From Iphione sp. A-MEVVRFRX5 (taxonomy: Eukaryota), in the NCBI GenBank assembly GCA_976226885.1, contig OZ320318.1:26412001-26476000 (forward strand): 64,000 nucleotides of DNA, in the 5' to 3' direction. The notes beneath the pieces are model-generated. The model was not told where the DNA came from, did not search any database, and was given only the letters and a program-made list of their open reading frames with translations. Positions 23,201 through 26,655 of the stretch are shown one piece after another (the stretch's first letter is position 1; each line of letters opens with the position of its first letter). The translations under genes and the position numbers were made by a program.

Positions 23201-26200
23201 CTATTTATAAAACACTTACCTACTTCTTTTAATTGTTCTTGCAAACTACACCGTTTGGATTTCGATTCTTTTAATATTTGCGACAGCAAAACACTTAAAC
23301 CACGATGTTGTTTGTTTATATAACTTACAATATAAACTGCACAAGCATAAGGATCAATAACATAAGATATATCATGATTTGCTTTCCAAACCCCTAACAA
23401 ATTTTTCATATAAGGATTTACGCGTATGTCTTTCGGTTCTCTTTTCAAAAACACTTTCCATGATGTTAATGAAGTCCGAACTGCACTAATATACCTCTCT
23501 TCGGTTAATTCCAAGTATTTTAAAAAATCGTCAAATGAAAAAGAACTTAATTTATCTTCATCATTCATAAGTTCACAAACACGTCGAAAATCACGAATTG
23601 CTACCAAATCATCCTTCAAAGGCTCTAACACTTCAGTTTTTCGCATAGGAAAAACAGGAAAGTGAAACCGACAAATAGCCTGGCCACGTTTTCTACATGT
23701 TCGAGAATGTTTATGCGTCTGTAGATCGATAAATTTCTTGTTGCTGTCCTCCACAGAACTTGAACAACTCACAAACTTATCAATATATTCAGCAACTTCA
23801 ACACTATTCTGCTTATCTGTGCTATACCGAGGATTATTCTTGCACCAAACTAACATGTGAACATGAGGACTTCCACGATGTTGAAACTCCACTCGGTAGA
23901 AATAATCTTCCACTTCACCTATGGGATTTGCCTTACTCTCTAAAACTCCTCTCAAAAACTTATCAAAGCGAAAATCAAAATATCTGGCACAAGTTACCGG
24001 ATCACTACTAACTAACTGAGCCCTCTTAGTCCATGAAAATTCTTCTATTTCCTCATCTGTATACAAAACATTATCTATCAAAAGACCAAGTGTTCGCAGC
24101 AATGGTATCCAGTACAGATCAGCAGCAGACAAAGACATAAACCACGTAGGAAACCCAAGTTGTCTAATCATAGCCATAACATTACTTTGTGCTCGCTCAA
24201 AATATTGTGGAGTATTCCTCAACCTGTTATACATATAAAACCCTTCATCAGATGTTCGAAGCCTCTCTCTGCTTTCGCGTGTTGCCACGTCAATCTTGGA
24301 ATAATGACCTACATTTCTACTACGACGAAGTGCAAAACGCGATACTGCCTTAATCAAAAGACTCTGATATTTTTTATATTTGAAGAAAATATTTTCCAAA
24401 TTTGTTGCGATACGTCTATCAACATTTCGCAATTCAAATTTACACACATCAGAATAACGCATCGAACAATTCACATACGGATTAATTCCACCATACAAAT
24501 GAGGATAAGCCATATACTCTCCATTTGCGTCATAAATTAAACTCAATGGCATATTGTATTCACCCGGAGCAATATCGAAAAACAAGTCCCCAGTATGAGC
24601 ATCTAGAAGACTTTGCATTTGCAAATCCTTCTCAGTGACATCAACTTCAGAGAAGTTATCTTCATCACTATCGCTATCATCATTGTCAAGTTCCTTAGTA
24701 TTACAACTTTCGCTGTAACAACGCTCATTGGCTGCTTCATCTACAGATTCAGCTGTCAAACTTGGTCCATCGTTCATCAATGCATTAACTGTTTGCGTTA
24801 ACCAATCGTAATCAATGATAACATTATCTTCTTTATACAAAGGACTATTCTTCACTAACCACTCTAGAGCCTTCAACACATTAACAGGGCGCACATTGAA
24901 TTGCCTGTATGCATGCTTGTTTGAAAGTTTTCTCTTCAACCGAACACATGTAGTACCTGCCGTATTTATGTACCTCGGCAACTGAACAACAGTATCCTCT
25001 ACACGTGCCAAAACATTTACAACAGGTCCCTTCAAACTGTATTGAAAACCACGGGGTAAATAACGTATTTGCATAAATGCGAGACGCCGAGCTACAAGAC
25101 GTGCTTCATCGACAGTAATTTGTAACTCATGGGGAACAGTCGGCAATATAAATCCGTTCATGTAACAGATACGAGGTAAACGACGGTCACTAATCGCTTT
25201 GGAACATGTTTGACAAATATATTTGCATTCATTTTGAGACTTACCACCTACTACATGTTGAATATGATAGTAAATTTCTGAAGTGACTTCCCGAACACTA
25301 TGAATAAACCACACCTGGCTACACATGCAACAACAATAATGTGGCCCTTCTTCAATGTTAAGAAAAAAACTCTTGATACACTTGTCTAACTCATTTGCGG
25401 TTGAATCTGTATCAGAAGAAACAACATTACCATTTGTTTTCTTGCGAACTTTTGCATTCTGTGAATTAACTACCCTGATAGACCGCTTCTGCTTCCTACT
25501 CTTTTCACTACTACAGTTTCCAATTATTTGATTTAAAATGTCGGATTTATCATTGACCACTTTAGTTTTACCACAAACAGCCTTTTTTCTACCTTTGGTA
25601 TGTTGTAACGCTACTAAGTTAGGTACAAGCATACCATCACTATTTATCAACACACTTCTGCAGTTCGGTTCTTTCAGAGACTTACTTTTCTTGACACTTC
25701 TAGTTGTACTACACGTGTTCTTCCTTTCAGATTGTAGCCCCGTTTTTTCTTGACTGTTACTACTCTTTTGGACAAATTCTTTTACACGAGCACTTCCATT
25801 TCTGCTTTTCTTCTGATCGGATTTAGTCTTACTAAACGTCTGAGAAATGCCAGTTGTTTTGATAAAGCCAGAAATATTACCGTTCCGATCCGTTAACCTG
25901 TTTCCTTGTACCGATTCACTTACATTAGATCTACATGACTTTTCTGTTGTATGAAACATATCCTTACCTACCAAACACCTCAAATTCTCTATCACTTCCA
26001 TAGCAATGAACCGGTTGGGATAAATAGAATTTATATCTACAAATATTTCACAGAACGTATCAGACAATCCATTTTGGACCATATGCACCACAGAAATTTC
26101 ATACTGGAATTGTTGTGAACTATAATATAACTTTTCTATATGACCAATAAGTTCATAAAAATCTTCAAAACATATGTGAACAGCTGTACCTTCTGCCGAC

Positions 26201-26655
26201 GGGAAACCTTTTTTAGAACGCGCATGAGAATCAAACATATAGTAAACGCCAGTTCTGCAATATACTGCAATAGACAAATGCTGTGCAACAAATATACAGA
26301 ACGGACTAATCGAGAATGCTTTCACAAACGCAAAATATATGGAATCGCCTTTTGGTATGTGTACACCAACAAAACATTTCACCACATCAAAAAAAATCTT
26401 TCTACTATTTACAATCAATAATTGTGGCAACTCACAAGGAGTCAATTGCAAAGCAGTTACTCTCCGGCGAATTTGTGTATACAGAAAGTCGCCAAAGTCG
26501 AGGACATCGTCTACATGTCTACTATTTACAATGCCATTACAAAAAACGAACACATACAACAAACAGCCGGCAGCAATAGCGGTACATTGATTGCCACGAC
26601 CACTGTGATTATATACACTACTATTTTGACTCCGAGAACCTTGTAAAACTTTCAT
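20296..26655 (-). CDS. Helentron RepHel polyprotein: C76-type deubiquitinase, Zn finger, HUH Rep, PIF1 (SF1B) helicase, APE/EEP endonuclease (~2119 aa from ATG 26655)
   Basis: Single uninterrupted ORF. Rep motifs PTWFMSLS, VEFQHRGSPHVHML, YIVSYINK. Helicase GGAGVGKS, LLVDEVSMV, FGDLYQLQPV, TVHRAQG. EN LNAQSL, FAETRF, VGDVN, LDW, SYH. N-terminal QGSRSQ..GNQC..FDSH. Confidence 0.96.
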   Translation of the reverse strand: MKVLQGSRSQNSSVYNHSGRGNQCTAIAAGCLLYVFVFCNGIVNSRHVDDVLDFGDFLYTQIRRRVTALQLTPCELPQLLIVNSRKIFFDVVKCFVGVHIPKGDSIYFAFVKAFSISPFCIFVAQHLSIAVYCRTGVYYMFDSHARSKKGFPSAEGTAVHICFEDFYELIGHIEKLYYSSQQFQYEISVVHMVQNGLSDTFCEIFVDINSIYPNRFIAMEVIENLRCLVGKDMFHTTEKSCRSNVSESVQGNRLTDRNGNISGFIKTTGISQTFSKTKSDQKKSRNGSARVKEFVQKSSNSQEKTGLQSERKNTCSTTRSVKKSKSLKEPNCRSVLINSDGMLVPNLVALQHTKGRKKAVCGKTKVVNDKSDILNQIIGNCSSEKSRKQKRSIRVVNSQNAKVRKKTNGNVVSSDTDSTANELDKCIKSFFLNIEEGPHYCCCMCSQVWFIHSVREVTSEIYYHIQHVVGGKSQNECKYICQTCSKAISDRRLPRICYMNGFILPTVPHELQITVDEARLVARRLAFMQIRYLPRGFQYSLKGPVVNVLARVEDTVVQLPRYINTAGTTCVRLKRKLSNKHAYRQFNVRPVNVLKALEWLVKNSPLYKEDNVIIDYDWLTQTVNALMNDGPSLTAESVDEAANERCYSESCNTKELDNDDSDSDEDNFSEVDVTEKDLQMQSLLDAHTGDLFFDIAPGEYNMPLSLIYDANGEYMAYPHLYGGINPYVNCSMRYSDVCKFELRNVDRRIATNLENIFFKYKKYQSLLIKAVSRFALRRSRNVGHYSKIDVATRESRERLRTSDEGFYMYNRLRNTPQYFERAQSNVMAMIRQLGFPTWFMSLSAADLYWIPLLRTLGLLIDNVLYTDEEIEEFSWTKRAQLVSSDPVTCARYFDFRFDKFLRGVLESKANPIGEVEDYFYRVEFQHRGSPHVHMLVWCKNNPRYSTDKQNSVEVAEYIDKFVSCSSSVEDSNKKFIDLQTHKHSRTCRKRGQAICRFHFPVFPMRKTEVLEPLKDDLVAIRDFRRVCELMNDEDKLSSFSFDDFLKYLELTEERYISAVRTSLTSWKVFLKREPKDIRVNPYMKNLLGVWKANHDISYVIDPYACAVYIVSYINKQHRGLSVLLSQILKESKSKRCSLQEQLKEVGKCFINSTEISAQECIYMLLGMSMTKTSVSVIYLDTKIASERQRILKTDSQLEQLEDNSTDIFVDDKMVLYQARPAFFEAWCLGDYCSLITLSKSTSKNVSGLDDAQGGSFILYRSNSKVYKRRVKRAVLKFNCPSLENNEEQYFRIMLLLCLPWRTELPPDSKFTQLFHNLESIVQQQIVEKFCVFVQQPIHNLLKQINDLESKNVDTSTVAPNTGYENSRDKEEMDIQDDCLFFMVRDDPQTDVNFEKDGHVCVRPSVIDSIWSRGEMLDNVALLTCEQQIIYKHIMKEVLYDANKLHLFITGGAGVGKSLLLKTIYHSLQRHFNLASNMSVSALSVLCVAPTAKAAFLIGGKTIHSALQVWNYKQIVDMSDSTLNTQLLKFNDLKVLLVDEVSMVGANMLERIHIQLQRLKGNKQLFGGIHIICFGDLYQLQPVKDSWIFLDTSGLSRLAPNLWREHFQIFELQTIVRQANDKNFAQLLNRLREGLQTEQDYKMLESRIIGNVQEIPSGTDYLFSTNESVNRHNDLAFENCMSEKTCIYAKDVILNHNLKESIEKCIASTSLSLKDTGDLMKVLKVGVGLRYDITYNMDTEDGLTNGTTGTLTKIQYFDGISQPSILWLKFDDPNVGKNQRLKYHKRFAVNHDPSWTPLFVVSRKFVLKGEVYRTQFPLRQCSGRTVHRAQGTTMSSVAVQLSRPINAHTYYVCFSRLRSLSGLYLLSFDRTKVTVDDRVVKEMERLRKDRQVALNFVDIPIIRNAFAVTFLNAQSLFGHFRSVCCDKYLLSSTVLCFAETRFKRDESPAKFPIIGFKNVFASEPQFNTSFRPSHGLAVYVRTDLTIVNTYGYRYNNCEYLLVDLRCSSEFELTIFIVYKAPRASIESFKTLLLTAVPYLPKNNSLVIVGDVNMCLFEERNLVFLNWLETTYGVQQKVTEATTDGNTCLDWFLTQMSVQMSISYCPFSYHNAITGVLQELC
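20299..20945 (-). other. APE/EEP endonuclease domain of RepHel
   Basis: Motifs TFLNAQSL, LCFAET, GLAVYV, VYKAP, VGDVN, TCLDW, SYH in canonical order. Confidence 0.85.
21040..22400 (-). other. PIF1-family helicase domain of RepHel
   Basis: Walker A GGAGVGKS (~22286-22309), Walker B DEVS, motif III GDLYQL, motifs V/VI TVHRAQG and YVCFSR. Confidence 0.92.
23330..24550 (-). other. HUH Rep (Y2) domain of RepHel
   Basis: HUH motif HVH in FQHRGSPHVHML (~23855-23890); Tyr motif AVYIVSYINK. Confidence 0.92.
26070..26655 (-). other. Peptidase C76 (herpesvirus large tegument UL36/BPLF1-type) deubiquitinase-like domain
   Basis: vlQGSrsQ (oxyanion Gln), GNQCTA (Cys), VDDVLDFGDFLY helix, YMFDSH (Asp-x-His), in the order and spacing recalled for C76. 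Confidence 0.8.

Follow-up and report, generated by a model that had tools for sequence, protein, structure and literature searches.

VTD domains, cysteine proteases that Pfam describes as Herpes_teg_N and that we take to be the C76 peptidases, are found in the tegument deubiquitinases of herpesviruses and in the transposases of Helentrons. Most of the 1221 non-viral VTD homologues collected by Erven et al. in 2022 lie within Helentron open reading frames (ORFs) of vertebrates, insects, cnidarians and molluscs, and the Helentron VTDs of zebrafish cleave K48, K63 and K11 chains; two of the three also cleave NEDD8, the third barely (PMC9741609). Mutants of the Cys/Asp/His triad of a Helentron VTD lose activity, all VTDs assayed in that study cleave ubiquitin in some form, and the zebrafish domain DrT1-VTD2 has a crystal structure, 8ADD. 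The same paper already proposes a Helitron origin of the herpesvirus domain, and discusses both an interchange of VTD with OTU and a shielding of transposition proteins from proteasomal degradation. In HELIANO, Herpes_teg_N is listed for the RepHel ORF of elements in HLE2 subgroup b (PMC11417382). We describe a Helentron with a VTD in its transposase, RepHel, from a window of 64,000 nt of the genome of Iphione sp. A-MEVVRFRX5 (assembly GCA_976226885.1, contig OZ320318.1, positions 26,412,001-26,476,000, forward strand; positions below are those of the window unless stated otherwise).

A preliminary description of this DNA had noticed the deubiquitinase at the N-terminus of the transposase and had cautioned that databases might already hold such fusions. 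The caution was apt: because Helentron VTDs are in print in both Erven et al. and HELIANO, the fusion is not new and is of an already published kind, as are all main inferences of that description apart from polyprotein self-cleavage. The host element had been rightly recognized by its Helentron transposase, but its length of ~80 kb had been missed. Within the open-access literature searched, this is a VTD-Helentron of so far unreported size. We give a probability of roughly 60% to the reading that the VTD of an intact RepHel, in a Helentron of 80 kb with four copies, stays attached to the transposase, strips ubiquitin chains and protects transposition proteins from degradation.

A VTD protease domain in an intact Helentron transposase

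RepHel is encoded by a single stop-free frame on the minus strand (26706-20296, 2136 codons from stop to stop), with 2119 residues from the methionine at 26655. The frame is also open in the three other copies of its own subfamily (4/4), and the N-terminus M-K/R-V-L is common to the start site of all four related subfamilies. In a Pfam scan, the frame of the VTD continues through DUF6570, Rep and Pif1 to a weak match to an AP endonuclease at the C-terminus (Table 1), which bears out the fusion to the N-terminus of a rolling-circle transposase. In Rep, we take HVH to be the HUH motif and YIVSY to supply the tyrosines. The AP endonuclease match itself is below the cut-off, and its region shows a ratio of non-synonymous to synonymous substitution rates (dN/dS) of 0.21-0.29 between subfamilies. 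Judged by its sequence, the host protein is an intact Helentron (HLE2) transposase, with HUH Rep and Pif1 in one ORF together with DUF6570.

The N-terminal domain is confirmed as a cysteine protease domain of the VTD (Herpes_teg_N) family with the alpha-beta-alpha papain-like fold of M48 and DrT1-VTD2. The motifs noticed earlier are all in place: Gln10, presumably the oxyanion-hole residue, G21-N22-Q23-C24 (QC codons 26589-26584), DDVLDFGD (26511-26488) and FDSH (26235-26224); only the gap between the glutamine and GNQC had been misread, being ten residues and not two. Pfam Herpes_teg_N matches the RepHel N-terminus with 31.1 bits (cut-off 25, E 2.2e-7), and 8ADD is the sole PDB sequence match under E 0.01. 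A profile alignment of 70 sequences (the RepHel VTD, four relatives from the genome and 65 short proteins picked among the 150 protein matches listed) retrieves 8ADD at 1e-46; next come M48 and the tegument deneddylases of herpesviruses, with E between 2.6e-17 and 1.8e-5. The AlphaFold2 model based on this alignment has a pLDDT of 96.5; a single-sequence model (pLDDT 36.8) was discarded. The predicted structure superposes on 8ADD with TM 0.90 (Z 28.1, root-mean-square deviation (rmsd) 1.9 over 193 residues) and on M48 of murine cytomegalovirus (2J7Q) with TM 0.81 (Z 23.2, rmsd 2.1 over 185). Only six chains reach E<=0.001 in a fold search with the model, and they belong to 8ADD, 2J7Q and, at Z 16.4, 8ADC/8ADB; the ranking after 8ADD and 2J7Q runs through Waddlia VTDs to AvrPphB. 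Cys24, Asp142 and His144 align with the catalytic residues of 8ADD. The family call and the complete Cys/His/Asp set of the preliminary description thus hold, and two of the checks that it had proposed, HMMER against Herpes_teg_N and superposition on M48, came out in their favor.

A HMMER protein search with the VTD returns 339 proteins at E<=0.001, while a word-indexed protein search with the same query gave no match. Gln10 is present in 63 of the 65 aligned homologues (for the triad see Table 1), and triad and Gln10 are kept in 4/4 subfamilies of the Iphione genome. The domain is under purifying selection, as seen from codon changes: its dN/dS is 0.15-0.24 in five of five between-subfamily comparisons, with 0.37-1.00 in the adjacent linker and 0.04-0.14 in Rep and helicase. 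These values come from simple counting, with dS close to saturation for most pairs; in the cleanest pair, the VTD has 0.18 and the linker 0.55. The top-scoring database matches to the VTD (P0002-P0007 and others) are proteins of 869-2025 residues with three to seven tandem VTD-like domains and no transposase, similar to the multi-copy VTD proteins that PMC9741609 describes from insects.

Activity and targets of the VTD

By analogy with the zebrafish domains, the RepHel VTD is probably active on ubiquitin, and its targets would be RepHel or other proteins of the element. Glu75 aligns with Glu377 of DrT1-VTD2, the more important contact to the ubiquitin tail (PMC9741609); this numbering is taken from alignments, and the same count puts the published Asp451/His453 one residue off. 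Several points weigh against a protective ubiquitin protease. Cys74 occupies the position of Asp376 of DrT1-VTD2, yet Asp stands there in just 20/65 homologues. The ubiquitin-contact loop, Gly97-Phe114, has 18 residues, compared with 23 in 8ADD and a homologue median of 23, and shortening or deletion of the loop abolished the activity of DrT1-VTD2 (PMC9741609). The protective role is the published authors' speculation and not a result (PMC9741609). Given the short loop, and the loss of DrT1-VTD2 activity upon its deletion, ubiquitin activity is likely but not certain.

The shortened loop and the Cys at the Asp376 position also underlie the alternative that the VTD of this clade is active with a shifted specificity or the need for a partner, which we consider quite improbable. 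The 18-residue loop is common to all five alignment rows from the Iphione genome, PCELP is present in 4/4 subfamilies, and the triad remains under purifying selection. However, Glu75 is kept, 11/65 homologues have an equally short loop, and the loop is described as poorly conserved among VTDs that all cleave ubiquitin in some form (PMC9741609). An action mainly in trans on the host is unlikely as well: the VTD might deneddylate cullin ligases, or strip ubiquitin from damaged DNA sites or silenced chromatin, and so facilitate integration or expression instead of stabilizing RepHel. Two of the zebrafish VTDs cleave NEDD8, BPLF1 deneddylates cullins (PMC9741609), and fusion to a DNA-bound nickase-helicase would place the VTD at breaks; but NEDD8 is hardly a substrate of the third zebrafish VTD, and the present data fit cis and trans targets alike.

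The preliminary description had regarded the VTD as a functional replacement of OTU. The element indeed shows no OTU: none of the 25 genome matches listed for OTU (PF02338) falls within the four element copies, a search of the six frames of the element with custom OTU profiles gives no match at E<=1, and Pfam OTU has no match in 150 scanned element ORFs (out of 177 ORFs of >=70 residues). The replacement itself applies in a loose sense at best, since 121 published VTD Helitrons carry OTU too (PMC9741609), and among the 150 protein matches listed, two of the 19 with Rep or DUF6570 (Helentron-type) also have OTU. In a Rep tree, from which 4/20 rows with short Rep coverage were left out, the four subfamilies are united in a clade (100/100) placed among relatives that have VTD only. 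The lineage that has OTU only branches at a great distance and is very long; therefore no OTU-to-VTD replacement event is visible. A second rolling-circle lineage of this genome (L133-L136; G000:C15 near 30346500, G000:C4 near 86662500) has a RepHel of ~1930 residues with a C-terminal OTU and no VTD, in several intact copies, whereas published OTUs sit upstream of RepHel (PMC11417382). We considered this OTU-bearing RepHel as evidence of a swap and rejected it, as it has no VTD and lies on the very long branch.

Some viral deubiquitinases process polyproteins at di-glycine sites (PMC9741609), and the same role, cutting RepHel into separate enzymes, had been suggested for the VTD. It is exceedingly improbable: of the six Gly-Gly pairs in RepHel, the three conserved in 4/4 subfamilies are all inside the helicase, those at 470 and 1253, in non-catalytic stretches, are not conserved, and none follows the VTD, which leaves no conserved Gly-Gly site in any linker.

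Termini and copies of the 80-kb element

In the Helitron cycle, Rep nicks at a terminus, the helicase peels off a strand, and a circular intermediate integrates. The element around RepHel has both termini. Its 5' hairpin has a folding energy of -21 kcal/mol (z -5.6; 0/200 shuffles as stable), and its 3' terminus consists of a 13-bp repeat, a short hairpin and TT; such ends fit the Helentron definition of Thomas et al. 2014 (PMC4067079). The genome contains 14 VTD matches, including four copies of 99-100% identity with the open 2136-codon frame. Comparison of flanks delimits the block shared by these four copies, on four contigs, to 79,905 bp (C13, the copy in the window), 80,517 bp (C1), 80,025 bp (C15) and 106,134 bp (C4). 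Per block, identity to the C13 copy is 99.1-99.6% for C1, 99.8% for C15 and 97-99.5% for C4; three of the four copies are 99-99.9% identical. Both ends are common to the four copies within a base or two and coincide with canonical Helentron termini, with TT at both ends and no evident target duplication. Any similarity of flanks is absent from all six comparisons among the four copies; in the genome search, the left flanks of three copies match only themselves, and that of the fourth has two weak matches; this search with the left flanks turned up no empty insertion site. These observations suggest that the whole 80 kb was recently copied by rolling-circle transposition between the two termini.

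The C4 copy (G000:C4:48769877-48876010) owes its greater length to an insertion of 29 kb, which has terminal inverted repeats and is flanked by TAA triplets. The insertion, unusually long itself, lies at the place of window position 17960, in an intron of the OB-fold gene, and its long ORF is presumably Harbinger-like. Searches of the genome with long pieces of the element were dominated by short nested repeats; they did not list all known copies and say nothing on its unique share. The 5' end has 1002 first-look candidates in the genome, 40 of which were scored, a number that points to many short partners.

Sister elements of the same clade have the same termini. Two of them, each complete at both ends and present once, are 73,244 bp (G000:C10:78334796-78408039) and 74,137 bp (G000:C1:173492836-173566972) long, with reordered accessory genes; a copy on C11 has ~47 kb in common with the 74,137-bp element and no 5' end. 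A subfamily with 57% domain identity is represented by two copies of 228,910 bp (G000:C22:32821640-33050549) and 236,357 bp (G000:C22:47947193-48183549), located 15 Mb apart and oriented oppositely. Over their full length between the shared termini these two are mostly 99.5-99.7% identical, and their flanks are unrelated. A third copy of this subfamily, 85.6 kb on C2, is cut at both ends. The scanned ORFs of the 229/236-kb element (103 of 118 candidates) contain Gypsy, LINE and DIRS-like reverse transcriptases and polB, piggyBac, ankyrin, C2H2 and NADAR pieces; nested debris, copied along, therefore accounts for a large part of its length.

On balance, we favor the view that this VTD-Helentron clade transposes 73-236 kb as single units, has been active recently, and carries conserved accessory genes of its own (OB-fold, SGNH-like, coiled-coil). 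The 80-kb and 229-236-kb blocks might instead be segmental duplications or assembly duplicates around a Helentron of normal size, given that they far exceed catalogued elements, that the 229/236-kb pair shares one contig and is full of nested transposable element debris, and that the left flanks reveal no empty site. This is very improbable in our judgment: every full copy breaks off on both sides at the subterminal repeats, whose motif has 30 occurrences in the 1.52 Mb examined and, inside the copies, is confined to their ends; each element holds one RepHel; flanks are unrelated in 8/8 comparisons; the copies differ by substitutions, indels and the nested 29-kb insertion; and accessory genes are conserved between subfamilies. 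With transposition as a single unit, the two termini alone would set what is copied, and nested insertions would enlarge the element without stopping it. The OB-fold protein would probably coat and protect the long single strand, and the tethered VTD would strip degradative ubiquitin chains from RepHel or its partners.

Accessory genes and nested sequences

RPA is a known Helentron passenger, and the element carries a predicted gene of this kind along with several others (Table 1). OB-fold families are assigned to exon 1 of the four-exon gene by Atlas, which we treat as a lead. The SGNH-like ORF has relatives of 22-26% identity in two sister elements, and a Pfam scan of this ORF gave no match. 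The two upstream exons of the three-exon gene are 72-85% identical in two sister subfamilies, with a proportion of non-synonymous differences below that of synonymous ones (pN<pS). SGNH-like and coiled-coil genes are downstream of RepHel in the 80-kb element and upstream in two sister subfamilies; in the most distant subfamily, the OB-fold gene is the only accessory gene matched. Those element ORFs that were scanned against Pfam show no match to herpesvirus gene families.

Table 1. Features of the Helentron within the window.
Feature	Position	Strand	Evidence and remarks
Window part of the 79,905-bp Helentron (G000:C13:26379966-26459870)	1..47870	-	extends 32,035 bases left of the window to the 3' subterminal inverted repeat, hairpin and TT
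Helentron 5' terminus: TT, 13-bp subterminal inverted repeat with nearby inverted copy, hairpin	47810..47870	-	boundary common to 4 copies
RepHel, single-ORF Helentron transposase, 2119 aa, intact	20296..26655	-	VTD, linker, Zn finger/DUF6570, HUH Rep, Pif1 helicase, weak AP endonuclease match
VTD (Herpes_teg_N/C76-type) protease domain, RepHel residues 1-195; Gln10, Cys24, Asp142, His144	26071..26655	-	Pfam, PDB, fold, conservation, dN/dS
Catalytic Cys24 codon, aligned with Cys322 of DrT1-VTD2	26584..26586	-	Cys in 62/65 aligned homologues
Asp-x-His motif (Asp142, His144)	26224..26232	-	Asp 64/65, His 65/65 aligned homologues
DUF6570, HLE2-group marker (PMC11417382)	24799..25185	-	Pfam E 1.6e-18
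Rep endonuclease, Helitron_like_N match	23320..24309	-	Pfam E 1e-28; HVH at 23865-23857, YIVSY at 23334-23320
Pif1 helicase, Pfam-matched stretch	21742..22392	-	E 4.8e-23
AP-type endonuclease, weak match (Exo_endo_phos)	20455..20862	-	18.7 bits, cut-off 24.5, E 0.0016
Predicted four-exon OB-fold (RPA/SSB-like) gene, downstream of RepHel	17457..19626	-	GT-AG sites; 40-61% identity, pN<pS in three other subfamilies
ORF with SGNH/GDSL-esterase-like features, lead only	4618..5283	+	Atlas 0.93-0.94, Lipase_GDSL_2 on 21-30% of cluster members
Last exon of three-exon gene, coiled-coil-like C-terminus; first exons just left of window	2..787	+	51-54% identity, pN<pS in two sister subfamilies
Coiled-coil-like exon	7710..8135	+	46-47% identity, pN<pS in sister subfamilies; Pfam coiled-coil matches only sub-threshold
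Coiled-coil-like exon	12336..12953	+	41-49% identity, pN<pS in sister subfamilies
Coiled-coil-like exon, apparent paralogue of 7710-8135	29476..29787	+	

Tandem repeats make up 6.5 kb of the element and internal similarity 13.2 kb. Low-copy tandem arrays with periods of 143, 255, 252 and 99 are located at 37892-41662, in the 5' part, and related arrays occur in a sister subfamily. Short high-copy genome repeats are nested at 5626-6069, 10290-10470 and 43424-43767. A strong negative GC skew extends over ~9000-48000 and stops at the 5' terminus of the element. Left of the window, still inside the element, decayed piggyBac-like transposase fragments (L056:2447-3274) are found in all four copies. 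Also left of the window, a serine/lysine-rich ORF of 310 codons (L055:1603-2532) is open in all four copies, and has no match in Pfam or in the sister subfamilies.

Comparison with known systems

No Helitron-like element in Repbase exceeds 39,893 nt, and the longest stretch between helicase and 3' end is 16,811 nt (PMC11417382, 2024). A 2019 review mentions a Helitron of 39 kb in maize (PMC6431247), and a 2024 paper describes Helitrons as rarely >10 kb and as unfaithful cargo carriers (PMC11162782). Our search of the open-access literature brought up no larger Helitron-like element. Copies of 80 kb and of 229/236 kb that are almost identical and stop precisely at Helentron termini suggest that a ceiling at ~40 kb does not apply to rolling-circle transposition. 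If this is true, no larger rolling-circle transposons have been described: they would surpass the Repbase maximum two- to sixfold and would duplicate quarter-megabase blocks with their nested cargo, and they would have been overlooked by annotation tools that scan ~10 kb from the transposase. They would also represent an animal route to large segmental duplications and a natural system for learning what an HUH-helicase transposase needs to copy very long DNA. The deubiquitinase fusion alone is of small import, being one more member of a published family, but a VTD with a short loop makes a fair test of the range of VTD specificity.

The closest described domains are those of zebrafish, DrT1-VTD1/2 and DrT2-VTD (PMC9741609, 8ADD), which have the same fold, the same Cys...Asp-x-His triad and the same location within RepHel; the C-terminal AP endonuclease of their ORF has a sub-threshold counterpart in Iphione. 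The RepHel of Iphione differs in having one VTD at its extreme N-terminus and no OTU, whereas DrT1 has two VTDs and DrT2 a VTD and an OTU. Identity is ~23%, the ubiquitin-contact loop is five residues shorter, and Cys replaces Asp376. The herpesvirus tegument deubiquitinases (M48 2J7Q, UL36, UL48 and BPLF1; PF04843, C76) share the fold, the order of the triad and the N-terminal position at ~20% identity, but their domain is fused to a capsid-binding protein and not to a transposase.

As a transposon, the element agrees with Helentrons and HLE2 subgroup b (PMC4067079, PMC11417382) in its termini (13-bp subterminal inverted repeats, an inverted repeat at the 5' end, a hairpin at the 3' end, TT at both) and in its proteins: DUF6570, Herpes_teg_N and a putative endonuclease in RepHel, and a separate predicted OB-fold gene. 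It stands apart from catalogued HLE2 elements by its size, 80 kb with relatives of 73, 74, 229 and 236 kb against the Repbase maximum, and by the ~52 kb between ORF end and 3' terminus, against 16.8 kb at most from helicase to terminus. The OB-fold gene lies downstream of RepHel, in contrast to the upstream RPA of HELIANO HLE2 elements, and the coiled-coil genes are additional. An SGNH hydrolase, texim, likewise travels inside fish Helitrons (Tomaszkiewicz et al. 2014, PMC4021074); the SGNH/GDSL-like ORF in the element of Iphione is a candidate from an Atlas lead. In Teratorn, Polintons and fungal Starships, too, several genes are copied together in a single block that spans tens to hundreds of kb, but these rely on DDE transposases, integrases or tyrosine recombinases, whereas the element of Iphione has only an HUH/Pif1 rolling-circle transposase.

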